Source: Candidatus Kaiserbacteria bacterium (GTDB lineage Bacteria > Patescibacteriota > Minisyncoccia > Phycocordibacterales > UBA2100). Taken from it: a stretch of 56,462 bases of DNA. Below are positions 4,114 to 54,604 of the stretch, one piece after another. The stretch is from assembly GCA_027083345.1 (NCBI GenBank), contig JALWOZ010000030.1, positions 66,977-123,438 on the forward strand. The letters are read 5' to 3'. The notes beneath the pieces are model-generated. The model saw only the letters and a program-made list of their open reading frames with translations. It was not told the DNA's origin and searched no databases. A program made the translations under genes and the position numbers. Positions within the stretch are counted from its first letter, which is position 1. Every line of letters starts with the position of its first letter.

Positions 4114-4159
4114 CTAAAAAGGATTCTTAGCACCGCGGACTTCAAAGTGTAGGTGAGGG
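4114..4159. repeat. direct repeat copy 2, which is the genuine 3' end of the M23 peptidase gene
   Basis: See 3549-3594. The two copies are 565 nt apart and bracket hicBA. Confidence 0.85.
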
Positions 4160-5181
4160 CCTGTAGAGCGACCTGTGTTACCCACATAGCCAATTACCTG
4201 ACCTCGCACAACATTCTGACCAACATAGCTAATATTTTTACTCATATGAGCATACACGGTCTGGGTACCATTTGGATGTTTGATTATAGTATAGTGCCCA
4301 TAACCACCATTCCACCCCCTAGGACGCGCCAATATAACCTTACCGGGAGCACTGGCTACGATAGGAGTGCCTACAGGAGCTCCTATATCTACCGCATTAT
4401 AACCATGCAAGCCTTGAGTCTTTACTCCTCTATGATTCAATGGGTGTATAAAATACCCACCTAAATCACGAGATGACACATTATGAGCCCTACTTGTTGT
4501 ACCCCTACTACGACGCGCGATTCGACGTACTGGCTTGGGACTTGCAAACTCACCATTAGGTATAATCACAACGGTACCCTTAGCCAGCTCTTCATCAGGA
4601 CCAACTCCGTTGTATTCTGACGCCTCATCTATATTACCTCCATACTTTTTAATAACGTCTCTCAATGTACCACCACGCTTAATGGTGTATTTAATACCTG
4701 TCATAGGCAATATAACTAGTTGTTGCCCTATACGTATAGTTGAGCCCCTCTTGATGTCATTTGCCCATTTTATAGTATTAACAGATACACCAAAAGTCTT
4801 AGCTATTCCACTGAGTGTATCTCCTTTACGCACTATATATACACTAATCTGTCCATCTCCTTTATGCCCCTCGGAAAATTGGGTAACACTTCCAATGGGC
4901 CCACTCTCAGCAACTAAGGCTGAACCATTGCGCACAACAATATCTCCTCCACCTTTAGCTATATTAGGATCTATATTACGGGCTGCACGAGGAAGTGGTA
5001 TATTTTGTGAGTTATAACCATTATCTTGTATATACACTACCTTAGTAGAAAATAAATCGGTTATAGAATCCAATATACTGGCATCTGCCATAGAGGGGAG
5101 ACTAATCCCCAATGCAAAGAATATTGACACCCCAATAGAAGCAAAAGTCCTTTCTTTTATATTTATCTGTTTTATACGCAT
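4114..5181 (-). CDS. secreted LysM-domain M23 family metallopeptidase (peptidoglycan endopeptidase)
   Basis: N-terminal signal/TM segment. LysM repeats ('YIVRKGDTLSGIAKTFGVSVNTIKWAN', 'YTIKRGGTLRDVIKKYG'). M23 motifs 'HGYNAVDIGAPVGTP' and 'GNTGRSTGPHLHFEV'. Confidence 0.9.
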   Translation of the reverse strand: MRIKQINIKERTFASIGVSIFFALGISLPSMADASILDSITDLFSTKVVYIQDNGYNSQNIPLPRAARNIDPNIAKGGGDIVVRNGSALVAESGPIGSVTQFSEGHKGDGQISVYIVRKGDTLSGIAKTFGVSVNTIKWANDIKRGSTIRIGQQLVILPMTGIKYTIKRGGTLRDVIKKYGGNIDEASEYNGVGPDEELAKGTVVIIPNGEFASPKPVRRIARRSRGTTSRAHNVSSRDLGGYFIHPLNHRGVKTQGLHGYNAVDIGAPVGTPIVASAPGKVILARPRGWNGGYGHYTIIKHPNGTQTVYAHMSKNISYVGQNVVRGQVIGYVGNTGRSTGPHLHFEVRGAKNPF

Positions 5182-6687: not shown

Positions 6688-6722
6688 TGGGGTAAACTAT
6701 AACACCGTGCTAAAATACCGCA

Positions 6723-9540: not shown

Positions 9541-9873
9541 ATGAGGAACCTAAAAGTCTTTATATTTTCTCTAATGTTATATCTAGCATTAGTAGCTCCA
9601 ACCGCAGAAGCCACAGTGCACTTTGGCGGTCAAATAACTAAAATAATAGGTTGTATAAACTTTGGAGTCATATATGCCCGACTAGGTCCCCCAAGAGGTG
9701 GTCCATATATATGGAGTCCGACTATAACAAAAACTTACTCATTTGGACCCCCAAGCCACGTTGGTCAATGGCTCTTGGGTAATGCGGGCCCATCTTATTA
9801 CTGTATAGAGAGGATCTATCCTTTAACTGTACACCCTGGACTACTTATATTAATGATGGGGTCAAGTAGATAA
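9541..9873 (+). CDS. small secreted protein (first gene of the T4SS-like operon)
   Basis: Signal peptide 'MRNLKVFIFSLMLYLALVAPTAEA'. Mature ~86 aa, Gly/Pro-rich with two 'GPP' segments. 9 nt after rsmA. Confidence 0.55.
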   Translation: MRNLKVFIFSLMLYLALVAPTAEATVHFGGQITKIIGCINFGVIYARLGPPRGGPYIWSPTITKTYSFGPPSHVGQWLLGNAGPSYYCIERIYPLTVHPGLLILMMGSSR

Positions 9874-9878
9874 TAAAT

Positions 9879-10769
9879 ATGAGCTCTATACAAAAAAAAC
9901 TATTCATAATCCTAATAACGCCTGTTATTGTTATTTTTATAATAATAACAGTATTTGCATTATCTATAATCACCCAAAATAATAAAAAAGATATTGTTTA
10001 TAAAGGAGGTACAGCGAACTCAATGCGTATTAATAGATTGCCTACCAAAGATATATTTACCAGTGCAAATAAACCAAATAATGTGATCAATAAAGTAAAC
10101 ACTCTACTCAACTCTTGGCAAAACTCAACCAAAATAAAACACTCTGCCTACACCCCCGATCCTACAAATACATCATCAACATTTGGTGTGGACACGGAGA
10201 TACAAAAAGACGTTCCAAAACCTCCTCAAGACTCTACCAAGCAGGATAATGAGCAATTTAACCCTTGGGATCTTATACCAAACCACTCAAAGCAAATCCA
10301 ATCAAAAAAGCCTGATAATAAAGCAAAAAACCCGGTCAAAATTACTATAAAAACTTATGGTAATACCTATGGCTCTACTATTAAAAAATATGCAGTACAG
10401 TTTGGAAACCAAAATAAAATAATGAGTGACTTGATAGATAAAAAATACGATGAATCGTCGAAAAAATCTGTACTAAATTTAGCACAACAATATATAGAAC
10501 TATCAAATGAACTCTTGAAGATCAACGGGGGTGACGCACTACATTCATCTGGGCAAAAATTAGCAAATGCTTATAAAAATGTAGGTTTGGCCACCAAAAA
10601 CCTAACACTATACACTGACGACACTGACACTCTAAAACGCTTATATACATACAATAGCGTGGTAGAAGATTTTACTAAAAAATATCTGGACTTCTCTACC
10701 TTATTTGGTGCATATGGCGTACAGTTTAGTGAGGGAGAAGGTGGGGATATATTTATGCCTCCAATGTAG
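9879..10769 (+). CDS. N-terminally TM-anchored protein, low-complexity linker plus helical C-terminal domain
   Basis: TM 'LFIILITPVIVIFIIITVFALSII'. Weak colinear similarity to the next gene product (TIKKY...SKK...). Confidence 0.6.
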   Translation: MSSIQKKLFIILITPVIVIFIIITVFALSIITQNNKKDIVYKGGTANSMRINRLPTKDIFTSANKPNNVINKVNTLLNSWQNSTKIKHSAYTPDPTNTSSTFGVDTEIQKDVPKPPQDSTKQDNEQFNPWDLIPNHSKQIQSKKPDNKAKNPVKITIKTYGNTYGSTIKKYAVQFGNQNKIMSDLIDKKYDESSKKSVLNLAQQYIELSNELLKINGGDALHSSGQKLANAYKNVGLATKNLTLYTDDTDTLKRLYTYNSVVEDFTKKYLDFSTLFGAYGVQFSEGEGGDIFMPPM

Positions 10770-10791
10770 CTTTGATGATATACTTAACCTT

Positions 10792-11592
10792 ATGCAAGGC
10801 TTTATATTAAGTAGGCGATTATTGTATGCCACCGTTTTTGGTATACTTATAATATTAGCTTCTTTATACACTACTATTACTAAAAAAAGTGAGGGGGGCA
10901 GATCCCAAACTCAGACGCAAAAAATCTCACCCAAAACATCTACTCAAGTATTAGACACTACTGTAAATACAAATAACAAAAGCGTACCAACAAACTCAAA
11001 TAACAAAACTCTAACAAAGACAGATGTTATTACTCGCGACTTGTTAGGCTCTTATGTACAACAAGTACGTAACAAAACGTATACTGAGCAGAGTGGTGAA
11101 AAGATAGTAAACAAAGTTACGGATGAGGTATTTGCTCTAAATTATAAACCTAAGCAACTAAGTACTCTTATAACAACACCAAACAACGATTACAATACTA
11201 TAAAAAAATATAAAGATTCTTTATATAAAACATTAAGCGCACTATCTAACCTAAAGGAGTATGAATTAACCATATATGCCAGAGCTATACAAAATAACTC
11301 TAAAAAAGATTTTGACGATCTGCGTAATATAAGCTTAATTTACTCTAATGTAGCTACAGACATGTTAGACATCACCGTACCTAAAGAGGTCTCTACCATA
11401 CACTTATCTATACTAAACAGCTTATACAAATTCTCAGAAGTACTTAAGAATATGGCGGACGGCTATAACGACCCGGCAGCCGGTCTCTCTGGTATAGGCA
11501 ACTTTACAAAGACTGAGGAAGAGATACAACAATCTTTTAGTAAATTAAAAACATATTTTATAGAAAAGAAACTATATAGCACCACAACATGA
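10792..11592 (+). CDS. N-terminally TM-anchored protein, probable distant paralog of 9879-10769
   Basis: Start chosen at ATG 10792 (MQGFILSRRLLYATVFGILIILASL), which avoids overlap with the upstream gene. Ends in TGA inside an ATGA overlap with the next gene. Confidence 0.6.
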   Translation: MQGFILSRRLLYATVFGILIILASLYTTITKKSEGGRSQTQTQKISPKTSTQVLDTTVNTNNKSVPTNSNNKTLTKTDVITRDLLGSYVQQVRNKTYTEQSGEKIVNKVTDEVFALNYKPKQLSTLITTPNNDYNTIKKYKDSLYKTLSALSNLKEYELTIYARAIQNNSKKDFDDLRNISLIYSNVATDMLDITVPKEVSTIHLSILNSLYKFSEVLKNMADGYNDPAAGLSGIGNFTKTEEEIQQSFSKLKTYFIEKKLYSTTT

Positions 11593-13304
11593 CCTTAAAA
11601 CCGATCACAAAACACCTAGCTACTATACTGTTTGTATCTACCGTTTTTGTGTTACCTATACCGTCATTAGCACAAGTAGCGGACACACCTACCAGTACAA
11701 CAACACTAAACATCCCTCAAGTTGCAGATAATCAGATATTTGACTGTAGTGGCAGTGCCCAAAATTCTGTAGGATGGGAGCAGGCTAGGGGTGTGTTCGT
11801 ACCCGTATCTGAAAATGCAGTTGCTCACAATACAAATGTGCTTGTATATAAAGAGTGTGTCCTAGATAGGATAGCCAATAAAATAAAAGAGTCTATGCTT
11901 GCATTTATGACCAAAAGTACTCTAAATTGGGTTAACAATACTTCAGACGGCACACCAGCATTTGTTACAAATTTACCTAATTTTAGAAAAGGAGTATCAG
12001 ATAAAACAATTAACCAATTTTTAACTGGTAAACAAACAGAAGTTTTGCCGGAAAAATATAGAGATGACATACGCAGAATCATCTTAAAAAATTATTCTAT
12101 CTTAACTAAAACTCCTGAAGCACTTTACACACCGACCATACCTGAAGATAAACAAGGGGCTGTAAACGACTTATTTGAGGGCAAGGGCACGTTTAAATGG
12201 GACACTTTTGAGATTGCAACACAACCTCAAAATAATCCGACAACACAACTTCTTTTAGCAACAAACCAGGCCATAGTAAACTTAAAAAGAGATGTGGCAG
12301 ACGCAGTAAAAGAGGTAGACTGGGGTCAAGGATTCAAACCACAGAAAAAATGCGAGCAAATACCTGCAGGTAATGGTACCTACAAAGAGATTTGTAATAT
12401 AGTAACACCAAGTTCTAGTATAAAAGACATAGTCAACTACACTCTATTAACCGGACAAAGACAAGTAGAGAATGCAGACCAAATGGATAAATTAGTAGGA
12501 TCCCTAATGAGTAACATTCACAATAGGATATTAACAAATACAGATGGTTTACGTGGTATAACAGACTCTAGTTATGGACAATCATACATAGACAAAGTGG
12601 TACAAGATGCTCAAGCAGGAGCTAAAATAACATATACTAATGTTGGTCTAGATTTTATATCTAAAATACTAGAATCAGAAAATGCATATTCAACCATACG
12701 TAACTCTACTCAAGATGCCCTCAATGCACTCATAACCCAATTAAAGAATAAAGAAACTACTTGTTGGGACGATTTAATTACTAGAGCTAAGATAGACATT
12801 ATAGATGAGGTTGAAGATCAAGCATGCAACCAACAACAAAGCGCTCAATGTTCCGCAACCGGCACCGCCACGGTAAAGACTGCTACATCTACAAACTCTG
12901 AATATCTAGTAAAAATAACAGGTAGAGCGGGTAATAACATAAAAAGTTATACTTTGTTACAAAATAATCAAAACTCTAAATCTGTTATACAAGATAATAT
13001 AACCCCCCTTATGAATCTGATTAGGAGAGATATAGACTACTCGGCACAATCCCTTGTTATACTAAACAACTTCCGCACAATGCTAGAATCCTCAAACTCA
13101 TTAGGCAACACTCGCTTTGTTATAAATGAGGTACAACAACTAATAAGAGAGGGTAAGGTGCATGGAGACGCTGAGGTCGCAAATGCACGCAACAGCCACC
13201 GTGATACACTAAGCTTTATAGAAAATTTATATACAGAGACCGAATCAACTTGGGACGACACATGGTGCAATCCGGATAATTGGAGAGCTCAAATAAAGAA
13301 ATAA
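11589..13304 (+). CDS. secreted 571-aa protein, unknown function
   Basis: Signal peptide 'HLATILFVSTVFVLPIPSLAQ'. Scattered Cys pairs. ATGA start-stop overlap with the upstream gene. Confidence 0.65.
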   Translation: MTLKPITKHLATILFVSTVFVLPIPSLAQVADTPTSTTTLNIPQVADNQIFDCSGSAQNSVGWEQARGVFVPVSENAVAHNTNVLVYKECVLDRIANKIKESMLAFMTKSTLNWVNNTSDGTPAFVTNLPNFRKGVSDKTINQFLTGKQTEVLPEKYRDDIRRIILKNYSILTKTPEALYTPTIPEDKQGAVNDLFEGKGTFKWDTFEIATQPQNNPTTQLLLATNQAIVNLKRDVADAVKEVDWGQGFKPQKKCEQIPAGNGTYKEICNIVTPSSSIKDIVNYTLLTGQRQVENADQMDKLVGSLMSNIHNRILTNTDGLRGITDSSYGQSYIDKVVQDAQAGAKITYTNVGLDFISKILESENAYSTIRNSTQDALNALITQLKNKETTCWDDLITRAKIDIIDEVEDQACNQQQSAQCSATGTATVKTATSTNSEYLVKITGRAGNNIKSYTLLQNNQNSKSVIQDNITPLMNLIRRDIDYSAQSLVILNNFRTMLESSNSLGNTRFVINEVQQLIREGKVHGDAEVANARNSHRDTLSFIENLYTETESTWDDTWCNPDNWRAQIKK

Positions 13305-13305
13305 T

Positions 13306-15549
13306 ATGGGAATTGATACTGCCATACAAATAATCATACTCTTACTACTAGCAAATCTTTTACCTGGACTTTTGCTTACTAATGCAGGGAAACTCTTTGA
13401 TGGGTCTATGTACTTTACATTGATTCATTTTGGAGAAACCATTAACCCTCTTTTAGAAATTATAAAAATAATATGGACAGCAGGTAGAGATATAACAAAT
13501 ATTCTTATAATAGGAGCTTTTGTATACATAGCTATATCTAAAATATTAAGTATCAATAAAAACTTTAATAAAGCAATCGTGCAGTTATTGTTAGTTGCAA
13601 CGCTTATAAACTTTAGTTTCTTTTTTGCTCAAGTGCCTATAGATATATCTAATTGGACAACAATACAAGTGTACAACTCAATAATCTTTAATACAGATAA
13701 ATTTACTAGCGATACTCAATCATTATCAGAGATAATTAAACAAAGCCTCGAAAAGCAAATACCTCAACAAAATGCTTTAGGGGTACCAGCGCCATGGGAT
13801 TTTGTTGGCATTCTAGCTACAATAGGAAGTTCGATTGCCAATATACTGCCGACTCTTGGATTGTTTTTTGTTTGGGTAATTGAGCAAATTGTAATTGCTC
13901 TGTTATTCTTTAGAATATCAATAATATTAATCACTCGATGGATAACATTAGTCTTACTAATGGCTACCTCCTCTTTAGGGTTTGCAACAATGTTAATACC
14001 GGGCCTAAAATCTTATTGGAGGTATTGGTATAAAGGATTAGTATATAATTCAATAATTGCCCCACTATTATTATTTTTACTATGGGGGGTAACTCTAATA
14101 ATTGTTGGGCTAAGATCAATAACCCCAACAGGGAATGCTACATTATACAATTATCTAACATCCTTCTTAAGTATTGGTCTTTTATGGGCTGCCATACGTG
14201 TGTCCACCATAATCTCAGAAAAAGCAACAAACTCTGCGGGGGGATTGGGTAAATATGTAAATAAAGCTACAGGATATATACAAGGATTAGGAGTCAGGGC
14301 TGGAGCTAGCTCATTGAGTTTTGCTGGACGCAATACACTTGGTAGAGGCTTCTCCAAAATGGGAGACAGACTAGAAAATATTGCCGGGGGTAAGCGTTTT
14401 GCAAACTCCACTGGACTAATGAGGCTCGCCGGAGACACTATAAATAGCACTGGTAAGCAGCTTAATAAAATAGGTAAAAGTGGCTTCGATATACGCACAA
14501 CTAAAGCATTTAAAAATGTAACTAAAAATGCCGGACTAGACTCCAAGGCCATTGGGTCCGGCATCAAAGATGGATTTGAAAAAATTGAAAAAAGGAAAGA
14601 ACAAGAACGTAAAGCGTCTATACAAAAAGCCGATAAAACAAGAGAGGAGGAAATCAAACAAAAACTAGAAGCAGAGTCAGAAATAAACAGAGCTCGTCAA
14701 GAAGAAATTAAAGATCTAGAAAAACAAAACAGTCAAAACGCCAAACAAGTACGAGACAATATGAGTCAAGCCTCACAACTGCAAAATGAGGCTACGAAGG
14801 AAAAAGCAGAGAAAACCAATAAAGAAGAGGAGAGGAATATCCTAAAAGGCGAGGTTGAGAGAGTTGAAAAAGAGATAGAAACCAAAAAAACAGAGAAAAG
14901 TCAACTAGAAGAAGCTCGCAAAACTGGTAGCATGAGAAAGGAAGGAGACAAAATAAATAAACTTAGCGAAGAAATAGCGAATCTTGAGGAACGCAGAGAA
15001 GATGGTCGAAATAAGTTAGAGATATTGAACAGCTCTATAGACAATTTAGACACCTCGATAAGTACAAAAGAGTCAAGAGCTAATGAACTTACACAAGAAG
15101 CTAATCTCATAAATCCTAGACTACGCAAACTATACCAAGAGGACGAAGAATTTAGCAGATTGGTAGACACTGAGGTAACAAATATGGTAGATGGCTTGAG
15201 TATGGTAACAGCATTAGAGCCAGACAGCTCAAAAGACTCTGCAAGTGAACAAATAGCAAGACTGGAGCAAGAGAGGACCGAGCTACAAGAAAGGCTAAAT
15301 AGCACAACAAACGCAACTAGTGATGAGGACAAGAAAAAGGATTCGGATAAATTAAATAAAGTGAATAGTGAATTGGCAAAATTACATAAATATAATAGAG
15401 TTCGTAAAGAACAAGCAAATAAATTCAAGAAAAATACAACGATGACTAAAGAGCAAATAGAGAAGGAGAAAAAACGCAAAGCTGTAGAAGATGCATTATT
15501 TAGAATAAACCAAGACCCATCATCTCAAAACGACTTTAAAAATACATAA
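13306..15549 (+). CDS. polytopic membrane protein (VirB6/TrbL-like) fused to a ~320-aa Glu/Lys-rich coiled-coil tail
   Basis: At least 7 hydrophobic helices in aa 1-330. From about aa 425 (nt ~14578) there is continuous heptad-like E/K/Q/N-rich sequence. Position in an operon with VirB3/VirB4 homologs. Confidence 0.5.
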   Translation: MGIDTAIQIIILLLLANLLPGLLLTNAGKLFDGSMYFTLIHFGETINPLLEIIKIIWTAGRDITNILIIGAFVYIAISKILSINKNFNKAIVQLLLVATLINFSFFFAQVPIDISNWTTIQVYNSIIFNTDKFTSDTQSLSEIIKQSLEKQIPQQNALGVPAPWDFVGILATIGSSIANILPTLGLFFVWVIEQIVIALLFFRISIILITRWITLVLLMATSSLGFATMLIPGLKSYWRYWYKGLVYNSIIAPLLLFLLWGVTLIIVGLRSITPTGNATLYNYLTSFLSIGLLWAAIRVSTIISEKATNSAGGLGKYVNKATGYIQGLGVRAGASSLSFAGRNTLGRGFSKMGDRLENIAGGKRFANSTGLMRLAGDTINSTGKQLNKIGKSGFDIRTTKAFKNVTKNAGLDSKAIGSGIKDGFEKIEKRKEQERKASIQKADKTREEEIKQKLEAESEINRARQEEIKDLEKQNSQNAKQVRDNMSQASQLQNEATKEKAEKTNKEEERNILKGEVERVEKEIETKKTEKSQLEEARKTGSMRKEGDKINKLSEEIANLEERREDGRNKLEILNSSIDNLDTSISTKESRANELTQEANLINPRLRKLYQEDEEFSRLVDTEVTNMVDGLSMVTALEPDSSKDSASEQIARLEQERTELQERLNSTTNATSDEDKKKDSDKLNKVNSELAKLHKYNRVRKEQANKFKKNTTMTKEQIEKEKKRKAVEDALFRINQDPSSQNDFKNT

Positions 15550-15558
15550 AATGAGAAT

Positions 15559-16905
15559 ATGGAAAAAATTAATAACAGCAATATAAAAAAAGAAATACCT
15601 GATGAAGGTCATGGAGATTACAAAAAAGCTCTCTATGTCGATAATAAGTATTTTGAAATCTTAAAAGAAAAAGGTGTCTCGGAGGCTAAGAATTACAGAA
15701 TGAGAGCCAATATAAAAAGTGAATATTATGATACATATGCAAGACTGATAAACGAAGGAAAGCAAAAAGAAGCATATAAATTAGCAAAAAAGCACGCCAA
15801 AACAATATCGGGAGCCGCAGCAAAGAATCACAGAGAGAGGAGGGAAGGCAAGTACAAAGATATAAGAAGGGATCGTAATGAAGAGAATAATACAAAGCAA
15901 ATAGAGGAACATGTAAAAACAATTCAGAAAAAACAAGAGGTAGAGGATGGGACAAGACATACCCAAACCTCTAATAACAATACAAACATTATACCACCTG
16001 GAACTTTTGATGACACATTAGATAATACCCCAAACAACACTCCGACTAACAACGAGGAAGTAGGGGGCGTGAGGAGCTATAAAGACATATTGAGAGGGGT
16101 AGAGGAGATGAAGGGTGCAGCTTTATTAGAATATTATAGAAAGATTACGGGAGAGAAGAATCCCACAATACCAACAGGATCAAGTTTTGAAAAATTAACT
16201 AAAAAGTGGAATGTACTAAAAAAGGCTTCTCTTTACACCATAATGGGCTCATTACCTGCACTAGGAGTTGTTGCTGGGGGAGTCTTAACTGGAGGAGCAT
16301 CACTTTGGATACACACATTAGCAACACTGGGAGGCTCTATGACAGGGGTTGCGATGTCATCTATAATCAACAAAGTTGGCAGTAAATCCGGCAGTAGACT
16401 ACATGACATGCAAGCCTTACGAGGTCTTGAAGAATTAAACAAGCGTTTAAATAACAAAGGCTACCTACCTAAACCAAAATACAATATATTGCACCAATCT
16501 TTACGAGAATTATTCGGACACAGACCACAACGCAATAGACGTTTAACTGAAATCTCCAGAGGAGACCTGTACTACATATTAAACAGTGGCTCACTTAAAG
16601 AAAAGAAGTTACAAAAAAATATAAAACTGGTGTCAGTAGTATTATCTTTATTAACCGCCGGACTCGCACACCAATTTCTTGCACCCACAGACACTGCAAC
16701 AAATGAGGCAGCACCAGCACCAACTATACCACCGCACAGTACAACAGAACAATCTATAAAAGCCCCAATTTTTGATGGAAAAAGTTTTATGAAAAATATT
16801 ACAGATTTCTGGGGAAACTTCTTTACATTTGATGGTAAAACTATGCCTGGCTTTAGTGCTCCCCATGTACCTAATTGTTATTCACCAAAATCTTTACTTA
16901 CATAA
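15559..16905 (+). CDS. membrane protein with a highly charged N-terminal half and central Gly-rich TM hairpin, unknown function
   Basis: 448 aa. TM region 'LYTIMGSLPALGVVAGGVLTGGASLWIHTLATLGGSMTGVAMSSII' and a later TM 'LVSVVLSLLTAGLAHQFL'. Confidence 0.6.
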   Translation: MEKINNSNIKKEIPDEGHGDYKKALYVDNKYFEILKEKGVSEAKNYRMRANIKSEYYDTYARLINEGKQKEAYKLAKKHAKTISGAAAKNHRERREGKYKDIRRDRNEENNTKQIEEHVKTIQKKQEVEDGTRHTQTSNNNTNIIPPGTFDDTLDNTPNNTPTNNEEVGGVRSYKDILRGVEEMKGAALLEYYRKITGEKNPTIPTGSSFEKLTKKWNVLKKASLYTIMGSLPALGVVAGGVLTGGASLWIHTLATLGGSMTGVAMSSIINKVGSKSGSRLHDMQALRGLEELNKRLNNKGYLPKPKYNILHQSLRELFGHRPQRNRRLTEISRGDLYYILNSGSLKEKKLQKNIKLVSVVLSLLTAGLAHQFLAPTDTATNEAAPAPTIPPHSTTEQSIKAPIFDGKSFMKNITDFWGNFFTFDGKTMPGFSAPHVPNCYSPKSLLT

Positions 16906-16925
16906 TAATATGATAAAATTATAAT

Positions 16926-17249
16926 ATGACACAATTAAACCAGCAACAAATAACAGAGAGATTATCTAGGGATCTAAATATACAACATCTCTCACCACAA
17001 GAGCAAAAAGAGATAATAACCCAAATGAGTACTGTGCTACTAGACAGAATAACAATAGCCTTAATAGCAGAGCTACCACAAACTGAGATGTCTCGTATAG
17101 ATATGTTATTAGAGCATGACCAAACAGAAGCCGTACAAGCACTATTAGCAAAGAATATTCCTAATTCCAATGAAGTCGCGGAAGAAGTTATAAACACAAC
17201 CCTAAAAGAGTTTGAAGAACTTGTTAATAATAAATCTCTAGATGAATAA
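16926..17249 (+). CDS. small acidic helical cytoplasmic protein, unknown function
   Basis: 107 aa with no hydrophobic segment. 8-nt overlap (ATGAATAA) with the next gene. Confidence 0.55.
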   Translation: MTQLNQQQITERLSRDLNIQHLSPQEQKEIITQMSTVLLDRITIALIAELPQTEMSRIDMLLEHDQTEAVQALLAKNIPNSNEVAEEVINTTLKEFEELVNNKSLDE

Positions 17250-17727
17250 CATAGAGCAACAACTGACAGACGCTTTCTCTAACTTGCCTAAAGTACTGCA
17301 AGATGTAATCTCTAGTGCCGATGTACAACAAAAATTACGCAACCTAGCGGACGTACATAAATTGCATTTAGATAAGTGGAACATCCTAGAATATGAGATA
17401 ATGCAAGCACTACTGGGTATAACAGACCCTAACAGTCTACCGCAAAATATAAGCAAAGCTATTAATATACCTCTAGAGAAGGCTCAAGAAATAACAAACT
17501 CTGTTGTAAAAATTGTTTTTAATCCTATACAAAAAAAACTCAGGGAGAAAGTAGGGGAACCTACAACAATAGCAGAAGAAGTGGTTGCAAATGATGTGAG
17601 AGGGGAATTTACAAAAATAGATATAAGTAAATTTTCAGAAGCCCCGACAACACCTGGAGCATACAAACCTAAAACAACAAAAAAATATGCGGACAACAAT
17701 GACCCTTATCACGAGCCCATAGAATAA
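17242..17727 (+). CDS. cytoplasmic protein, unknown function
   Basis: 161 aa, translationally coupled to the upstream gene. Confidence 0.55.
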   Translation: MNNIEQQLTDAFSNLPKVLQDVISSADVQQKLRNLADVHKLHLDKWNILEYEIMQALLGITDPNSLPQNISKAINIPLEKAQEITNSVVKIVFNPIQKKLREKVGEPTTIAEEVVANDVRGEFTKIDISKFSEAPTTPGAYKPKTTKKYADNNDPYHEPIE

Positions 17728-17765
17728 CCCAATTTATCATAATGTAACTGTGATATAATACATCC

Positions 17766-18224
17766 ATGCAATATCCGGTACCACAATTCCAAGATGTTGA
17801 AGATAAAGTTATAGGACCACTAACTTTTAAGCAGTTTATATACTTATTAGGTGGAGGTGGGTTGTCTTACGTGCTCTTACGAGTATTACCCTCTGGACTT
17901 AATTTATTATTAATAGCCATTGTGATGGGGACATCCACAGCACTAGCTTTTTACAAAATAAACAATCAACCTTTTATAAACATCTTAGAGGCCGCTTTTT
18001 ATTATAGTATAAAAAATAAACTATATTTATGGAGCAACAAAAGGCCTAAAAAAGACCAGGTAACACGAGATGATACTCCAAAAAACGAAGCCTCTATACA
18101 ACTCCCAAATTTAACAAAAAGCAAGATGAAAGACATATCATGGAATTTAGACATAAACGAAGAGGTACAAAAGGCTCAAGAGGCAGAGAACAGTAATCAA
18201 TATAATGTATTAAGTAATATATAG
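17766..18224 (+). CDS. PrgI / VirB3-like small membrane protein
   Basis: 'VPQFQDVEDKVIGPLTFKQFIYLLGGGGLSYVLL' matches the PrgI-family N-terminal pattern (xP....E.KV.G.LT..Q), followed by 2 TM helices. Lies upstream of the VirB4 gene, as in Gram-positive T4SSs. Confidence 0.6.
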   Translation: MQYPVPQFQDVEDKVIGPLTFKQFIYLLGGGGLSYVLLRVLPSGLNLLLIAIVMGTSTALAFYKINNQPFINILEAAFYYSIKNKLYLWSNKRPKKDQVTRDDTPKNEASIQLPNLTKSKMKDISWNLDINEEVQKAQEAENSNQYNVLSNI

Positions 18225-18225
18225 T

Positions 18226-18876
18226 ATGCCCAAAAATATAACTCCCAAAGAAGCCTCTCAAAATTTTGTACCCGTAAAAGAAGTACGAGATGGCATAGTT
18301 ACTCTTAGAGATGGTGGTTTAAGGGCTGTTTTAATGGCGAGCTCTCTTAACTTTGCTCTTAAAAGCGAGGACGAACAAAATGCATTTATCATACAATTTC
18401 AAAACTTTTTAAACTCATTAGACTTCTCTGTACAGATATCTATCCAATCTCGTAAATTAGATATAAGACCTTACATAACTACATTAGAAAATAGACTAAC
18501 ACAAACTCTAGATGAATTAATGCGCATCCAAATAAGAGAGTATATAGATTTTATAAAAAGCTTCACAGAGGCAGCAAACATAATGACAAAACACTTTTTT
18601 GTTGTAGTACCATATACACCGGCAACTCTTAATATAAGCAAGTCAAACCCATTATCAAAAATACCTTTATTCAAAAAAGATAAAAAACCTGATGTGAGCT
18701 TCACTTTTGAAGAAAATGTATCACAATTAGAACAGAGAATATCTATAGTCCAACAAGGATTAGTGAGGTCGGGTGTGCGCTCTGTACAACTGGGCACTGA
18801 GGAGGTGGTAGAATTACTCTATAAGATATTTAACCCTGGTGAGCTAGACCAACCAATGCAAACTAACAAAACTTAA
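18226..18876 (+). CDS. cytoplasmic protein resembling a free-standing VirB4/TraC N-terminal domain
   Basis: 'VPVKEVRDGIVTLRDGGLRAVLMASSLNFALKSEDEQNAFIIQFQNFLNSLDFSVQISIQS' follows the pattern seen at the N-termini of VirB4-class ATPases. 1 nt after the VirB3-like gene and 7 nt before VirB4. Confidence 0.4.
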   Translation: MPKNITPKEASQNFVPVKEVRDGIVTLRDGGLRAVLMASSLNFALKSEDEQNAFIIQFQNFLNSLDFSVQISIQSRKLDIRPYITTLENRLTQTLDELMRIQIREYIDFIKSFTEAANIMTKHFFVVVPYTPATLNISKSNPLSKIPLFKKDKKPDVSFTFEENVSQLEQRISIVQQGLVRSGVRSVQLGTEEVVELLYKIFNPGELDQPMQTNKT

Positions 18877-18883
18877 AGATATT

Positions 18884-20731
18884 ATGGGGATATTTGACTT
18901 TTTACAAAAAAATAAAAATGAAACAAAGCAAGAGACAGTTATGCCAGTGTTGCCAGCTGAGATATATAAACAAGGGGTCTTAGAATTACAAGATGTCATA
19001 GCGCCTTCAGCACTACAAATAACACCTAAGAGTCTGTCATTGGGAGAGAAGATGGCCAGAACCTTCTTCGTCATCTCTTATCCTCGTTTTCTCACAACAG
19101 GCTGGTTCTCTCCTATAATAAACTTAGATAAGATGTTTGATATATCAATACATATTCATCCACTTGAGACAACGGAGATTCTGCGCAAATTCCAAAGAAG
19201 AGTAGCTGAGATTGAGAGTCAAATATCGATAAGAGAAGACAAAGGGCTAGTGAGAGACCCTAAATTAGATACAGCGTATGCAGATTTAGAATACTTAAGA
19301 AATAGACTACAGCAAGCACAAGAAAAGTTATTTGATGTTGGATTGTATATAACAATTTATGGAGATACAAGAGAGGAGATAGACAAAATAGAGACAGAGA
19401 TACGCTCAATACTCGAGGCACGGCTAATATATCTTAAACCAGCCCTCTTCCAACAAGAACAAGGACTTAAAAGTGTTTTACCTCTATCTGACGATAAACT
19501 AAATGTACTAAATAAGTTAAACTCAGACCCTCTCTCTAGTATATTCCCATTTGTATCATTTGACCTCACATCAGACAGGGGGATACTCTACGGCATAAAT
19601 AGACACAACTCCAGTTTAGTACTATTTGATAGATTTAGTTTAGAAAACTATAACTCGGTAGTGTTTGCCAAGTCAGGTGCAGGTAAGAGTTACATGATGA
19701 AGTTAGAAATATTAAGATCTTTAATGTTTGACGCAGATATTATAATAATAGACCCAGAGAGAGAATATGAATATTTAGCAGAAACCGCAGGAGGTAGGTA
19801 CTTTAATATAACTCTCTCGAGTGAGCACCATATTAACCCTTTTGATTTGCCAACCCCCAGAGAAGATGAGAATCCAGCAGATGTATTAAGAAGTAACATC
19901 ATAACTTTAGTTGGTTTGTTCCGTATTATGTTAGGAGGCCTAACCCCAAGTGAAGACTCTATTATAGACAAAGCCATAACAGAAACTTACGCCCTAAAAG
20001 ACATCAATAGCGAAAGTGATTTCACAAATATAGAACCTCCTATATTATCGGATTTTGAACTTGTTTTATCAGGTATGGAGGGGAGTGAGAGCCTGGTACA
20101 AAGACTAACAAAATACACACAAGGTACTTGGAGTGGCTTCTTAAATAGAGCAACTAATGTAGACATGAATAAGAGACTTATAGTTTTTTCTGTTAGAGAC
20201 ATGGAGGATGAGTTAAAACCCGTCGCAATGTATATAATAACACACCATGTATGGAACATCGTACGGAAAACATTAAAAAAACGTATTTTGGTTGTAGATG
20301 AGGCATGGTGGATGATGAAGAGCGACGACACAGCAAGCTTTCTATACTCAATAGCCAAGAGAGGTCGTAAATACTTCTTGGGCTTGGCTACAATAACTCA
20401 GGATGTTGCCGACTTCTTAGGGTCTAAATATGGTAAGGCTATGTTGACCAACTCATCTATACAGATATTACTAAGACAGTCTCCGACATCCATAGACCTT
20501 ATTCAAGATACTTTTAAGTTATCTGACGAAGAAAAATACTTACTACTTGAGAGTGATGTAGGTGAAGGCATCTTCTTCGCCGGCCTTAAACACGTAGCTA
20601 TAAAAGTTATAGCTAGCTACACAGAAGACCAAATCATAACTTCTGACCCTTCACAAATATTAGCTATAAAAAAAGCCAAACAAGAACACGCCGAAGAACA
20701 AGGAGGAGGATTAGACTCTATAGAATTGTAG
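18884..20731 (+). CDS. virB4: VirB4/TraC-class type IV secretion ATPase
   Basis: 615 aa. Walker A 'FAKSGAGKSYMM', Walker B 'RILVVDEAWWMM', 'GLATITQDVADF'. The N-terminal domain 'ARTFFVISYPRFL..GW' is typical of Gram-positive VirB4 homologs. Confidence 0.85.
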   Translation: MGIFDFLQKNKNETKQETVMPVLPAEIYKQGVLELQDVIAPSALQITPKSLSLGEKMARTFFVISYPRFLTTGWFSPIINLDKMFDISIHIHPLETTEILRKFQRRVAEIESQISIREDKGLVRDPKLDTAYADLEYLRNRLQQAQEKLFDVGLYITIYGDTREEIDKIETEIRSILEARLIYLKPALFQQEQGLKSVLPLSDDKLNVLNKLNSDPLSSIFPFVSFDLTSDRGILYGINRHNSSLVLFDRFSLENYNSVVFAKSGAGKSYMMKLEILRSLMFDADIIIIDPEREYEYLAETAGGRYFNITLSSEHHINPFDLPTPREDENPADVLRSNIITLVGLFRIMLGGLTPSEDSIIDKAITETYALKDINSESDFTNIEPPILSDFELVLSGMEGSESLVQRLTKYTQGTWSGFLNRATNVDMNKRLIVFSVRDMEDELKPVAMYIITHHVWNIVRKTLKKRILVVDEAWWMMKSDDTASFLYSIAKRGRKYFLGLATITQDVADFLGSKYGKAMLTNSSIQILLRQSPTSIDLIQDTFKLSDEEKYLLLESDVGEGIFFAGLKHVAIKVIASYTEDQIITSDPSQILAIKKAKQEHAEEQGGGLDSIEL

Positions 20732-20750
20732 CTCGTGTTACAATAACAAC

Positions 20751-21284
20751 ATGAGTACCGAATATAGGATAAACAACTTTACTAGATTTTGGATGCTATC
20801 TTTAGCAATATCTTTTGATTTACTACAATTTCTTACTCCAGGTATCCTAGATAAATTCATAACTCTTATAGCTACAATAGTATTTGGTATGTTATTTGCA
20901 GAAAAAGGAGCCCTCACAATGAAAGGTAAGGGAATTATTAGAATCCTTAAATTATTAGGTCCGATATCAGATATAATTATAGGTAATATACCGGGCATAA
21001 CATTAACTGTATGGGCTCAAATTGAAGAATCTCGCATTATAGACAAAGTAGCTCCAGACTCTGCAAAAGCTGTTTTACAAAATAAACAAAAGTTAAAGAG
21101 CCCAAAGAGAGGTGTGGGTACCAAAGTAACACAAGATACTATACAGAACCCTACAAAATATGGTAAAGGTAGGAGGGGGCAAAGAACCCTATCAAGAGAA
21201 TATACCCGCAGTATCAATAGAAACACGCATTCTAAACAAAGAAGTCTGCAAAATACAAAACTACCTTCCAAACACATGTTATAA
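20751..21284 (+). CDS. membrane protein with a basic C-terminal tail, unknown function
   Basis: 2-3 TM helices in the first 100 aa, then a Lys/Arg-rich tail. Confidence 0.5.
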   Translation: MSTEYRINNFTRFWMLSLAISFDLLQFLTPGILDKFITLIATIVFGMLFAEKGALTMKGKGIIRILKLLGPISDIIIGNIPGITLTVWAQIEESRIIDKVAPDSAKAVLQNKQKLKSPKRGVGTKVTQDTIQNPTKYGKGRRGQRTLSREYTRSINRNTHSKQRSLQNTKLPSKHML

Positions 21285-21291
21285 TTATAAT

Positions 21292-22326
21292 ATGCGTCTA
21301 TTATATATATTTGCCATATTTATATTATTCACTCCATATGTGCAAGCATATACTCCTTCAAATTTTGATGAGTTTACAGATGCGTCCATGTATATACAAC
21401 CTAAATACCCAGAACCAGGAGAAGAGGTATTGGTAAACCTACAAAGTTACACTAACAATTTACACAACATATTCATACAGTGGTTATATGGAGGTAAAAT
21501 TATAAAAGAGGGAGTAGGTGTAACTAATGTAAAAATTATCGCACCAAAATTAGGAAAGAGTCTAAAATTAAAAGCTAAAATTAAAGGTGTTACAGATCTA
21601 GAAAGAGACATAGCACCTATACTAATAGATATATTGTGGACAGCACAAACTTATACCCCCAAAAGATACCTTGGTAGAGCCCTGCCAACAAACAGATCTA
21701 AAATACAAGCAGTGGCAATACCTCACTTAGGTAAAAGTAATATAGACCCTAACAAGCTTACATACAATTGGTATAAAAACAATAGATTCTTAACAAAAAA
21801 CTCGGGTATAAATATGTCAAAAATAACAACGGCGTCGCCTAATATATATGATGAATACATACTAAATGTAGAAGTCTTAGATAGAAAGGGTAATAAATTA
21901 GGTAGAAGTGGCGTAAATATAAAAACGGTCAAGCCAGAGGTTTTACTATATACAATACACCCTTTATTAGGAGTACGTTATAATACATCCTTAAATAATC
22001 CAACTCTAAATAATAATATCTCAGATGAGGCCCGTATAGTAGCTGAGCCATACTATTTTAGTACCATAAACACAAATTTATTAAGTTATGTATGGAAAGC
22101 TAATAATATGAATCTTGAAAAAACATCAAGCCCACAATCTGTCACAATCCTAAAATCAACCCCTGGCGCAAGTTTATCTGTTTATGTAAAAGATAAAAAC
22201 AAACTCCTACAGTATAGCGACACGACATACACAATGTCCAGGAAAAATAACAGCTTAAACACATCTCCTAATACACAAAACAATAAGACATACACGTCGC
22301 CTTTTGGATCACCGCCAGGAATATAA
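21292..22326 (+). CDS. secreted beta-rich protein, unknown function
   Basis: Start moved to ATG 21292 (MRLLYIFAIFILFTPYVQA, a signal peptide). The listed upstream extension overlaps the previous gene. Confidence 0.6.
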   Translation: MRLLYIFAIFILFTPYVQAYTPSNFDEFTDASMYIQPKYPEPGEEVLVNLQSYTNNLHNIFIQWLYGGKIIKEGVGVTNVKIIAPKLGKSLKLKAKIKGVTDLERDIAPILIDILWTAQTYTPKRYLGRALPTNRSKIQAVAIPHLGKSNIDPNKLTYNWYKNNRFLTKNSGINMSKITTASPNIYDEYILNVEVLDRKGNKLGRSGVNIKTVKPEVLLYTIHPLLGVRYNTSLNNPTLNNNISDEARIVAEPYYFSTINTNLLSYVWKANNMNLEKTSSPQSVTILKSTPGASLSVYVKDKNKLLQYSDTTYTMSRKNNSLNTSPNTQNNKTYTSPFGSPPGI

Positions 22327-22333
22327 ATAAAAT

Positions 22334-23572
22334 ATGGAAAAACGAAAACTATATATAATAACAGCTCTAATAATAATCTCATTACTCTCGGGATTATCTT
22401 TTTGGTATTTGTATATAATTAAACAAAAATCAAATATAACAAAAGTAACAAATCTAGACATTCAAGGGCCAGAAGATAAGAATGCAATACTAAAACTACC
22501 TCCATCTAATCCTTTTGGTGAGAATTCTACTACAACTACTATAGATAAAGATTTTAAACAAGCATCAAATACTGAGCAAAATGCAATAACATCTTCTACA
22601 ACTACCACTCCTATAGAAAAATGGGAGCTGATCCAAATATATGATAAGCCTGTAGCAGGTTACAGCATAGCAGAAAACACAATAAAATTTATAGATAAAA
22701 GTACAGGCAATATTAATGAATGGTTTGACAATAATATAATACGGCTTTCTGGTATAACTATTCAAAAGGTACAAGATGCGTATGTACTATCAGATTCCTC
22801 TACCTTAATAACTCAAAACAGTACCTCAACCCCTGTATTGATTAAAATAAAAGGAGAGGAAGCTACTACTGAAAGCACTAATATGGACTCCGACATACTC
22901 CAGTCAGCACAATCAAGAGATACTATCTATTACACAAAACTTAATAATAGTGGAGAATTAGTATTAAAAAACTCAAAATCTCCAAAAAGAATTCTGTGGA
23001 CATTTGATATTCCAGATTGGTTAATACAGGCGACTAATAAAGATATAGTAATAACTCAAAAGGCTTCATATAACATACCAGGGTACTCTTATTTATTAAA
23101 CAAAGATAACCTCAAAAATAAGACCGCTCAATTAAAGCCGATTATACGAGATACTCCAGGTCTTATCACTAACGTATCTCCAGATAGCCAACAAGTTCTT
23201 TACTCATCTTTTGGGAAGAAACAAGCGTCACTAAATCTTAAGCAGATAAATAACAATAAGAACATTACTCTATCTGTAATAACATTAGCAAATAAATGTA
23301 GTTGGGGTAACGATAGTTTAGTTTTATATTGTGCTATACCTAAGACAATCCCACAAAATATAATAAATAAACTACCAGACATATGGTACAAAGGAGAAAT
23401 TAGTTTTAATGACGATTTATGGAAGATAGACACAAAATCCGGAGATGCTTTAAGGTTGGCACGAGATACAACACTTGATATAATCAATATTAAAGAGGGA
23501 GATGGCTTGATTGTCTTTACTAATAAAATAGACCAATCACTCTGGGCAATGGTAAGAAGTAATAAAGAATAA
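22334..23572 (+). CDS. N-terminally TM-anchored extracytoplasmic protein, unknown function
   Basis: TM 'LYIITALIIISLLSGLSFWYLYII', Thr-rich linker, then a beta-rich domain. Confidence 0.6.
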   Translation: MEKRKLYIITALIIISLLSGLSFWYLYIIKQKSNITKVTNLDIQGPEDKNAILKLPPSNPFGENSTTTTIDKDFKQASNTEQNAITSSTTTTPIEKWELIQIYDKPVAGYSIAENTIKFIDKSTGNINEWFDNNIIRLSGITIQKVQDAYVLSDSSTLITQNSTSTPVLIKIKGEEATTESTNMDSDILQSAQSRDTIYYTKLNNSGELVLKNSKSPKRILWTFDIPDWLIQATNKDIVITQKASYNIPGYSYLLNKDNLKNKTAQLKPIIRDTPGLITNVSPDSQQVLYSSFGKKQASLNLKQINNNKNITLSVITLANKCSWGNDSLVLYCAIPKTIPQNIINKLPDIWYKGEISFNDDLWKIDTKSGDALRLARDTTLDIINIKEGDGLIVFTNKIDQSLWAMVRSNKE

Positions 23573-23577
23573 ATAAT

Positions 23578-23952
23578 ATGTTTAATATAAAATCACTACT
23601 TGCCTCGATTAGTTATGTACCAATGACTAAAATACCTTTTTTGACAAATAACATACCAAATATAGATGGAGTGGGGATAGCCAGTCCTGTTGAATTATTT
23701 AATGCTTTATTCACACTGTCTATCACAATAGGAGCTATCTTAGCTGTTGTGATGTTTATGTATGGAGGCATACAAATGATAACAGCCAGGGATAATGCAG
23801 GTACAGTGGGGAAAGGTAAAAAAAGAATGACAAATGCTATATATGGGCTACTTATGCTTTTATCTACCTATATAGTCTTAAACACAATAAATCCACAATT
23901 AACCAACCTAGACCTATTCCAAAACTTCCAGAAAATAAACCCAAATAATTAA
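23578..23952 (+). CDS. type IV secretion pilin-like protein (TrbC/VirB2-type, CPR T4SS_pilin-like)
   Basis: 124 aa. Two hydrophobic helices ('LFTLSITIGAILAVVMFMYGGIQMI' and 'AIYGLLMLLSTYIVL') separated by a short basic loop. Last gene of the operon. Confidence 0.6.
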   Translation: MFNIKSLLASISYVPMTKIPFLTNNIPNIDGVGIASPVELFNALFTLSITIGAILAVVMFMYGGIQMITARDNAGTVGKGKKRMTNAIYGLLMLLSTYIVLNTINPQLTNLDLFQNFQKINPNN

Positions 23953-25680: not shown

Positions 25681-25689
25681 TTATCCACA
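25681..25689 (+). promoter_or_regulatory. perfect DnaA box TTATCCACA
   Basis: Exact consensus 9-mer, embedded in a 15-nt arm aacaacttatccaca (25675-25689). Confidence 0.8.
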
Positions 25690-25756: not shown

Positions 25757-25765
25757 TGTGGATAA
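25757..25765 (-). promoter_or_regulatory. perfect DnaA box (TGTGGATAA on the + strand)
   Basis: Exact reverse complement of the consensus. The arm tgtggataagttgtt (25757-25771) is the perfect inverted repeat of 25675-25689. Confidence 0.8.
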
Positions 25766-38916: not shown

Positions 38917-39013
38917 AAACCTTATTTACATATAATTTTGTTGTGGTGTGTAAAGTGTATAATTATGTGTATAACATGGTTGTATAGTAGATATTTAGGG
39001 TTACAATTGTCAT

Positions 39014-42739: not shown

Positions 42740-42744
42740 TAGGT

Positions 42745-43950: not shown

Positions 43951-43995
43951 TATTATTTGTTATTAAATATAGCCGGATAGTTGTGGTAGAATTAG

Positions 43996-54598: not shown

Positions 54599-54604
54599 AG
54601 CAGT

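Follow-up and report, generated by a model that had tools for sequence, protein, structure and literature searches.

Type IV secretion systems (T4SSs) are near-universal in the Patescibacteria, a huge and mostly uncultured radiation, and in the one species tested the system is essential for epibiotic growth. A survey of 3,035 Patescibacteria genomes (Quinonero-Coronel, 2025, Microb Genom; PMC12102498) reports that their VirB4 ATPases form a monophyletic clade nested in the MPF_FATA type, that virB4 has genes for TrsD, VirB3/PrgI, VirB6 and VirB2-like pilins as neighbors, with relaxases almost always absent, and that in the Paceibacteria the system lies close to dnaA, dnaN, rnpA, and ksgA. Transposon sequencing (Tn-seq) showed the Saccharibacteria T4SS cluster, including its pilins, to be essential for epibiotic growth, and that cluster is without a relaxase and a coupling protein (Wang, 2023, Cell; PMC10633639). 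A 2025 review of the Patescibacteria T4SS describes an “extended VirB6” class (PMC12857230). Here we analyze a cluster of 15 genes at 9541-23952 in a 56,462-nucleotide (nt) stretch of a Candidatus Kaiserbacteria contig (JALWOZ010000030.1; the whole stretch is called the window below). We are confident that this locus is a Paceibacteria-type chromosomal T4SS, derived from monoderm MPF_FATA conjugation machinery without the DNA-processing module and fixed beside oriC; in all likelihood it is an ordinary member of the Patescibacteria T4SS that these three publications have already made known. An earlier note, made from the letters of the window only, had read it as an envelope machine of an episymbiont, derived from a T4SS, carried on the chromosome, and not used for conjugation; this reading survived all the tests that we ran, and matches PMC10633639 and PMC12102498.

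The cluster consists of 15 open reading frames (ORFs), numbered here as genes 1-15 in their order along the window, all on the + strand. Recomputing the junctions returned the range given before, from -8 to +38 nt, and the two overlaps can be read directly: ATGA at 11589-11592 (genes 3 and 4) and ATGAATAA at 17242-17249 (genes 7 and 8). The starts chosen earlier for gene 3 (10792) and gene 13 (21292), in place of longer mechanical ORFs from 10705 and 21160, agree with the lengths of the orthologues in the two closest genomes (loci L081 and L082), which are 268 and 272 amino acids (aa) for gene 3, and 341 and 335 aa for gene 13. A Kyte-Doolittle scan also bears out that 11 of the 15 products (genes 1-6, 9, and 12-15) have hydrophobic N-terminal or internal segments. 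The genes that carry the identification are the following.

Gene 5, 13306-15549, + strand: polytopic protein, probably of extended VirB6-like type.
Gene 9, 17766-18224, + strand: small membrane protein of the PrgI/VirB3 family.
Gene 10, 18226-18876, + strand: TrsD-like protein of 216 aa, probably corresponding to the N-terminal domain of full-length VirB4.
Gene 11, 18884-20731, + strand: VirB4-class ATPase of MPF_FATA type, 615 aa, aligned to the full-length model only beyond its first ~180 positions.
Gene 15, 23578-23952, + strand: VirB2-like pilin (T4SS_pilin), 124 aa.

The product of gene 11 contains both of the motifs that had been read in it, the Walker A motif AKSGAGKS and the Walker B motif ILVVDEAW, and scores above the curated cut-off of a VirB4 family: it matches the CD1110-family model NF045971 of NCBIfam with 372.3 bits (cut-off 325; E 4.7e-111), aligning to positions 184-733 of the 752 in the profile. 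The AAA_10 match that the earlier note had expected was obtained from Pfam (E 1.4e-11), next to a stronger one to P-loop_TraG (1.4e-27) and a minor, overlapping one to DUF87/HerA (6.6e-8). The best match among structures is 4AG5, the C-terminal domain of a Thermoanaerobacter VirB4 (E 9.7e-43), with TrwK at 1e-6. The alternative that this ATPase belongs with FtsK/HerA or with the pilus ATPases thus failed, P-loop_TraG being far above DUF87/HerA and 4AG5 the best structure. Its eleven best NCBIfam matches are all to conjugative or DNA-import models (VirB4, TraC, TraG, CedB, TrbE); the four weakest rows (E 0.03-0.08; TcpF 0.004) include chance-level matches to SMC-related, Rad50, and isochorismate lyase models. 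The best curated model is that of an MPF_FATA prototype (CD1110), and this, together with the labels of the homologues, would be consistent with a place in the Patescibacteria clade.

The N-terminal domain of VirB4, which is the membrane- and VirB3-proximal part, is not on the gene 11 chain. Positions 2-118 of NF045971 are matched instead by gene 10 (E 7.5e-5), whose further NCBIfam matches are to positions 100-233 of VirB4_plasma (NF045975; E 1e-11) and to TrsD (E 5.1e-5); all of these lie below the cut-offs set for whole proteins (for TrsD, 23 bits vs. a cut-off of 200). The orthologues in L081/L082, which are 80% identical, carry a precomputed match to PF26593 (TraC-like), and the gene is found in 77 related loci, adjacent to virB4, with a median tblastn identity of 61%. 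Because gene 10 matches the N-terminal region of VirB4 models that gene 11 lacks, we consider VirB4 to be split over two genes, a TrsD-like N-domain and an ATPase, as in the staphylococcal Trs system; the match positions in the curated models are the basis for this. Gene 10, left unclassified in the earlier note, is accordingly placed here as a VirB4 N-domain or TrsD-like protein. Aligning the gene 10 family with the first 250 residues of gene 11 by hhalign gave no homology (probability 0.3%), as expected, since the two genes would be complementary parts and not duplicates or paralogues. An iterated hidden Markov model (HMM) search that drew in 74 gene 10 homologues from VirB4 was rejected as profile contamination and left unused: its source was a single borderline phmmer match (E 3.5e-4 in 1472 sequences), for which the reciprocal search was negative. 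For this reason the assignment of gene 10 rests on NCBIfam and on the precomputed PF26593 match.

Two of the membrane components likewise exceed curated cut-offs, at the positions where they had been proposed. Gene 9 matches Pfam PrgI (PF12666; E 2.3e-10, 41.3 bits vs. a cut-off of 27), has a hydrophobic segment at residues 36-54 plus one before it, and occurs in 74 related loci, where gene 10 always follows it directly and VirB4 comes next. Gene 15 matches T4SS_pilin (PF18895; E 6.9e-11, 42.5 bits vs. a cut-off of 26.6), has two hydrophobic helices flanking a basic loop (KGKKR), and belongs to a family present in 65 related loci; it also matches weakly the Mycoplasma pilin-like family NF045849 (E 0.002), which comes from an integrative and conjugative element (ICE). 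The orthologous pilins are longer (146-470 aa), being extended at the C-terminus and having one more hydrophobic segment, the third, and the convergent khpB ends 2 nt past the stop codon of the present copy; its shortness and the closeness of khpB suggest that the extension was lost in this lineage.

Of the four parts that the earlier note had named, PrgI, VirB4, and the pilin therefore stand above curated cut-offs, and the VirB6/TrbL-like protein stands at the level of fold: the match to a TrbL/VirB6 sequence model that had been expected for gene 5 is absent, but fold and architecture support the proposal. Gene 5 has an N-terminal helical membrane domain of ~330 aa, with at least six hydrophobic segments in the protein by Kyte-Doolittle, followed by a charged, coiled-coil-like tail of ~400 aa, and its family occupies a conserved position in the cluster in 65 loci, with proteins of 750-940 aa. 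AlphaFold2 gave an all-helical model for residues 1-340 (pLDDT 74.7, pTM 0.70) from a shallow alignment (for the membrane domain, 1 homologue by word-indexed search and 20 with an alignment query). In a Foldseek search of the PDB with this model, the top 8 matches were chains from entries of the R388 stalk (TrwJ/VirB5-TrwI/VirB6; E from 1.5e-3, prob 1.00); chain 7o3v_F is named TrwI, and we assume that the other seven are the remaining TrwI protomers. In a profile search of the PDB sequences TrwI ranked second, at a non-significant E of 0.44, and among the 20 retrievable homologues of gene 5 none carries a precomputed Pfam domain. Gene 5 is thus probably VirB6-like, a likeness of predicted fold rather than demonstrated membership in the family.

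Together these proteins suggest how the machine may be put together. The TrsD-like N-domain (18226-18876) and the ATPase (18884-20731) would form a cytoplasmic motor, the split VirB4, that docks on PrgI/VirB3 (17766-18224) and on the extended VirB6-like protein (13306-15549); VirB4 would then pull the VirB2-like pilin (23578-23952) out of the membrane, to be polymerized into a pilus or conduit. The machine would serve interaction with the host, by protein delivery or by contact, rather than conjugation.

The surroundings of the cluster and its conservation in relatives tell most about its origin. Upstream lie tuf, rpsJ, an EPSP-synthase-family gene, uvrD, and rsmA; downstream lie khpB, yidC, rnpA, dnaA (at 25806), dnaN, a class A penicillin-binding protein gene, ruvCAB, and polA. 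Perfect DnaA boxes (TTATCCACA) occur only twice in the 56 kb, at 25681-25689 and 25757-25765, on opposite strands and both in the rnpA-dnaA spacer, and this pair probably marks oriC, ~1.7 kb away from where the cluster ends; to say, as the earlier note did, that the cluster adjoins the replication origin is therefore reasonable. The GC profile has no island-like break at the borders of the cluster, apart from a GC-richer stretch at uvrD/rsmA. VirB4 homologues with 72-94% identity are abundant in metagenome-assembled genomes (MAGs) of Parcubacteria/Paceibacteria, and the 120 homologues with an organism name (among the matches listed) and 80 genome loci are all Patescibacteria or unclassified MAGs. 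The expected synteny was found: in the closest genomes, L081 and L082 (VirB4 94% and 90% identical), none of the 15 genes is missing or out of order and their lengths are similar, and 46 species-level loci with full flanks share the order rsmA, genes 2-3-4-5, 8, PrgI, TrsD-like, VirB4, 13, 14, pilin, khpB, yidC, and dnaA. The conserved core amounts to ~12 genes, with the rsmA and khpB-yidC-rnpA-dnaA flanks kept in these 46 Paceibacteria loci, which are labeled Kaiserbacteria, Nomurabacteria, Campbellbacteria, Taylorbacteria, and Paceibacterota. Many of the most similar loci (L001, L002, L004, L007, and others) come from MAGs titled “uncultured Candidatus Saccharibacteria” (TPA_asm); these titles look like mislabels, since in gene order and VirB4 identity the loci group with those of Kaiserbacteria, Nomurabacteria, and Paceibacterota.

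Identity to L081 falls from 94% in VirB4 to 80% in the TrsD-like protein, 64% in PrgI, and 34-54% in the exported or bitopic envelope proteins. On sequence comparison, this gradient agrees with a motor that is conserved and a surface that evolves rapidly, and would be compatible with diversifying pressure acting at the surface.

That the cluster might be a decayed ICE, or a part of an active one whose relaxase, type IV coupling protein (T4CP), and integrase lie outside the window, is suggested by its VirB4 family, which is defined on conjugative elements (CD1110/CTn2), and by the extent of the DNA scanned, namely the 50 ORFs of the window (against Pfam) and the called genes in 10 kb upstream, ~66 kb of the genome in all. 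Against such an element stands the class-wide fixed context, the same gene order between rsmA and khpB-yidC-rnpA-dnaA in the 46 species-level loci, which an independently inserting element would not show and which makes this origin very unlikely. The 72-94% identity of VirB4 across species indicates strong purifying selection, and we noticed neither an integrase nor repeats nor a boundary of tRNA type. The earlier note had listed a relaxase, VirD4/T4CP, VirB9/10, and an integrase as missing, and none of these families is found by Pfam among the 50 ORFs of the window; nor does a mobility family occur in the 10 kb upstream, whose called genes are housekeeping or unannotated. A linked set of relaxase, T4CP, and integrase, which defines a conjugative element, is thus lacking from the window and its upstream flank. 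The claim that there is no coupling ATPase holds for the same DNA, but not necessarily for the genome: in most of the Patescibacteria genomes, the survey locates VirD4-like genes at a large distance from virB4, a point in favor of an ICE, and also counts only 15 relaxase genes close to virB4 among 2,417 assemblies with VirB4, a point against (PMC12102498). VirB11 is absent from the window as well, as had been said. The only T2SSE-family ATPase, at 33633-35324 (- strand), carries an MshEN domain, and because of this domain and of the other type IV pilus genes in the window we take it to be PilB, not VirB11; those genes code for an N-methyl prepilin (51350-51769, - strand) and for PilM, followed by two small downstream genes (53612-55666, + strand).

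As a relaxase is missing from the neighborhood, transport of protein, or a use of the pilus itself for contact with the host, is more likely than transport of DNA. DNA could also be moved in the opposite direction. There are precedents for DNA import by T4SS-type machines in the ComB system of Helicobacter and the archaeal Ced system, and a T4SS working in reverse might import host DNA as nucleotides or as genes. Such a use would agree with the local absence of a relaxase or coupling protein, with a weak match of VirB4 to the CedB DNA-import model (E 9.7e-11, far under the cut-off), and with the inability of Patescibacteria to make nucleotides (PMC10633639). The CedB match, however, covers query residues 441-515 only and is far weaker than those to conjugative VirB4 models, and the cluster contains no DNA-binding or competence genes. 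In Southlakia epibionticum, moreover, competence needs ComEC and type IV pili, and deletion of comEC abolished competence and left viability unaffected; the essentiality of the T4SS is, according to the review, not attributable to a functional interaction with ComEC (PMC12857230). We therefore regard DNA uptake as improbable, and prefer the reading of the locus as a T4SS for interaction with the host. By analogy with S. epibionticum, the system would probably be needed for growth on the host cell.

The remaining ten genes code mostly for envelope proteins.

Gene 1, 9541-9873, + strand: 110 aa with an N-terminal signal-like segment, no named family, peripheral member.
Gene 2, 9879-10769, + strand: bitopic protein, N-terminal transmembrane (TM) helix (residues 8-26) and extracytoplasmic domain.
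Gene 3, 10792-11592, + strand: bitopic membrane protein, apparent paralogue of gene 2.
Gene 4, 11589-13304, + strand: exported protein of 571 aa with ~10 cysteines and a hydrophobic N-terminus, conserved unnamed family.
Gene 6, 15559-16905, + strand: 448 aa with two hydrophobic segments, lineage-restricted accessory gene.
Gene 7, 16926-17249, + strand: cytoplasmic helical protein of 107 aa, DUF5663-like, lineage-restricted (L081/L082 only).
Gene 8, 17242-17727, + strand: soluble protein of 161 aa without a TM segment, unnamed family just upstream of PrgI.
Gene 12, 20751-21284, + strand: small membrane protein with hydrophobic segments and a basic C-terminal tail, unnamed.
Gene 13, 21292-22326, + strand: signal or anchor helix, then three tandem Ig/FnIII-like beta-sandwich domains.
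Gene 14, 22334-23572, + strand: bitopic protein, TM residues 6-24, large extracytoplasmic domain with a conserved Cys pair.

The earlier note had held that most of these products belong to no nameable family. They are still unnamed (PHROGs gave nothing useful for the ten unnamed products), but they are not unique, since most of them recur across the class. Iterated HMMs built from gene 2 and from gene 3 reach the same 64 ORFs in 51 loci; on this evidence the two are tandem paralogues, with a pairwise identity of ~13%. The gene 4 family is present in 51 related loci (54% identity in L081) and has no match in Pfam, NCBIfam, PHROGs, or PDB sequences. The gene 8 family is present in 70 loci (65% identity in L081), and gene 12 is found after HMM iteration only, in 24 loci, as polytopic proteins of 115-124 aa (48% identity in L081). 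Gene 14 is present in 69 loci, with invariant K321, C322, W324, and C333; its PDB matches are weak and non-significant, to the beta-propellers of eIF2A (E 0.012) and TolB (E 0.23), so that it is possibly a beta-propeller. Others are confined to close relatives: gene 6 was found only in L081/L082, with 47% and 31% identity over the C-terminal 280 aa, and not in the 80 species-level loci, and gene 7 matches Pfam DUF5663 with 23.3 bits, just under the cut-off of 23.7 (E 1e-4). Gene 1, for which Pfam, NCBIfam, and PHROGs gave no match, is found in only ~20 related loci, on the opposite strand in most of them (L001, L003-L008, and others) and on the + strand in L081/L082; its membership in the system is probably not obligate.

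The clearest of the unnamed products is that of gene 13. Its AlphaFold2 model (pLDDT 90.0, pTM 0.77) has an N-terminal helix and otherwise beta strands; Foldseek finds multi-domain Ig/FnIII proteins (CD45, Hoc, titin, SiiE), and a profile search matches phage Hoc (E 7e-5). The family comprises 2714 clusters at 50% identity and is present in 74 related loci. Going by this model, a surface spacer or adhesin is plausible.

In the proposed machine, the 9879/10792 pair, the Cys-rich protein 11589, the triple-Ig protein 21292, and the bitopic protein 22334 would make up the wall-spanning and host-contact part, a lineage-specific and fast-evolving scaffold through which the pilin would be polymerized. 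This envelope part of the model is a conjecture, because we found no VirB8-like or VirB1-like component in the cluster. Two candidates for a VirB8-like (NTF2) protein were considered and rejected: for genes 2/3 a PDB profile search gave insignificant helical matches and no VirB8/NTF2, and gene 13 has three Ig-like domains instead. As to cell-wall hydrolases, the window contains two candidates elsewhere, an SLT-domain protein (42745-43950) and an M23/LysM peptidase (4114-5181, - strand). The former, of 401 aa, is the lytic-transglycosylase-domain protein of a second co-directional envelope block at 38269-45396, with further products of 215 aa, 1241 aa (no family), and 466 aa; it is a possible stand-in for VirB1. 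On the matching public contig, a small gene of the HicA toxin family (~3853-4107, + strand) with a 75-aa ORF before it is called beside the M23/LysM gene.

A pilus without any transport is the other reading that the envelope genes call up: VirB4, VirB3, VirB6, and the pilin would build a VirB2-type pilus that holds the host, and no substrate would be moved. The pilin itself speaks for it, being present here and normally lacking in monoderm conjugative systems (PMC12102498), as do the essential pilin array of Saccharibacteria (PMC10633639), the Ig-like surface protein coded in the cluster, and the absence of a T4CP nearby. Yet the window already has PilB, a prepilin, and PilM, and in Saccharibacteria adhesion is ascribed to type IV pili; proteins of the VirB6 family form part of the translocon in the systems that are known; and the present results fit a pilus plus secretion equally. 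An attachment organelle of this kind seems to us doubtful, and we retain the T4SS reading with pilus or conduit. As an extension of it, the unnamed extracytoplasmic families (9879/10792, 11589, 21292, 22334) might form a wall-spanning host-contact structure that has no counterpart in described T4SSs and replaces VirB8, VirB1, and the adhesin, giving, with a core of split VirB4, VirB3, VirB6, and pilin, a feeding or effector conduit made from several leaderless sub-transcripts; we put this forward tentatively, as a proposal with an outside chance of being right.

Four findings weigh against the identification of the locus as a Paceibacteria-type T4SS, and are reasons for keeping it short of certainty. 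Gene 5 has no TrbL/VirB6 (PF04610) match in Pfam (E <= 1) or NCBIfam (E <= 0.1); its structural match to TrwI has a low TM-score (0.33-0.45) and a marginal E (1.5e-3); neither a VirB8-like (NTF2) nor a VirB1-like component was found inside the cluster; and the DNA inspected is ~66 kb of the genome, so that a T4CP or relaxase could lie at a distance.

The earlier note had also taken the 15 genes for one transcription unit. Their tight spacing fits co-transcription, but -10 boxes inside the cluster argue against a single transcript. Of the 50 genes of the window, 7 have a -10-like hexamer (TAnAwT, often after TG) whose first base is exactly 12 nt upstream of the ATG; these hexamers lie at 6711-6716, 15547-15552, 16914-16919, 17754-17759, 20739-20744, 21280-21285, and 39002-39007; five of the seven belong to the cluster (genes starting at 15559, 16926, 17766, 20751, and 21292). 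Against a background of 0.0065 per position, this peak at -12 has a P of about 1e-6. The boxes of the cluster are listed here, together with that of gene 1.

Gene 1: TATAAT, 14 nt upstream of the ATG.
Genes 6 and 7, 15547-15552 and 16914-16919, + strand: TAAAAT at -12.
Gene 9, 17754-17759, + strand: TATAAT, extended box TGTGATATAAT, hexamer at -12.
Gene 12, 20739-20744, + strand: TGTTACAAT, hexamer at -12.
Gene 13, 21280-21285, + strand: TGTTATAAT, hexamer at -12.

The same peak at -12 is found in the related loci (85 of 1257 ORFs in 80 loci), and a box between -15 and -12 is retained in ~27% of the orthologues of PrgI and gene 13. There are hardly any Shine-Dalgarno motifs. The box at 17754-17759 implies a putative promoter for a leaderless sub-transcript of genes 9-11, and the cluster probably holds several promoters with leaderless sub-transcripts; given several promoters, the claim of a single transcription unit is unproven. 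The motif also suggests that leaderless mRNAs may be widespread in the lineage. A generic scan gave no enrichment of promoter-like (55 vs. 59 in shuffles) or terminator-like (8 vs. 9.5) sequences, the analysis by position at -12 being the informative one, and searches of the available literature for leaderless translation in Parcubacteria or the Candidate Phyla Radiation brought up nothing relevant.

Among the systems that have been described, some share single components with this locus. In the Mycoplasma ICEs, the N-terminal region of the Mbov_0397-type VirB4 is the best NCBIfam match of gene 10 (E 1e-11), and the Mbov_0395 pilin-like family is matched weakly by the pilin (E 0.002); all the Mycoplasma matches are below curated cut-offs, and those systems are mobile ICEs with a single-chain VirB4. 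The resemblance to R388 is through TrwI (VirB6; PDB 7O3V, 8RT9, and 8RTD), both the top structural match and the second-ranked profile match of gene 5, at an identity of 13-16%; gene 5 has a charged tail of 400 aa that TrwI lacks, and R388, unlike this locus, is of diderm type, having VirB5 and a core in the outer membrane.

The likeness to the monoderm MPF_FATA systems (CTn2 of C. difficile with the VirB4 CD1110, Trs of pGO1/pSK41, and Prg of pCF10 with PrgH/I/J) lies in a VirB4 that passes the CD1110-family model, in a VirB3 of the PrgI family, and in the absence of an outer-membrane core (VirB7/9/10); as in Trs (TrsD and TrsE), a gene for a probable TrsD-type N-domain precedes that of VirB4. 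Unlike them, the cluster contains no relaxase, T4CP, PrgK/TrsG-type hydrolase, PrgL/VirB8, or PrgB adhesin, includes a VirB2-like pilin, and is a fixed chromosomal locus, not a mobile element. Another counterpart is S. epibionticum ML1 (SEML1_0006-0019), whose cluster codes for a member of the PrgI family, for PF18895 pilins, and for a TrbL/VirB6-like protein that bears a helical extension and is very long. It contains no recognizable relaxase or coupling protein, and is most similar to Gram-positive conjugative systems. It differs from ours in its array of six pilins, where we find one, and in its NTF2/VirB8-like protein (SEML1_0012), a fold not found in our cluster; S. epibionticum belongs, moreover, to another class, Saccharimonadia, and essentiality was shown there only. 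The long hydrophilic tail of gene 5 fits the “extended VirB6” class of the review (PMC12857230).

The closest counterpart is the Patescibacteria-clade T4SS itself, as described in the available part of the survey (PMC12102498): here as there, VirB4 is accompanied by an adjacent TrsD (here a TrsD-like protein), by PrgI/VirB3, by a VirB6-like protein, and by a VirB2-like pilin, there is no relaxase nearby, and the system is chromosomal, beside dnaA, dnaN, rnpA, and ksgA (rsmA). What we add is minor. The triple-Ig protein (21292-22326), the paralogous pair 9879/10792 (genes 2 and 3), families 4, 8, and 14, and the -12 boxes in several genes go beyond that part of the survey. The locus may be of use for structural modeling of the core of split VirB4, PrgI, and VirB6, for giving names to the conserved “grey” genes that surround virB4 (the triple-Ig family, for example, counts >2700 clusters at 50% identity), and for asking whether these genomes use leaderless transcripts. 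Nothing essential differs from the published picture, which the window leaves unchanged and of which it is a clean Paceibacteria example.

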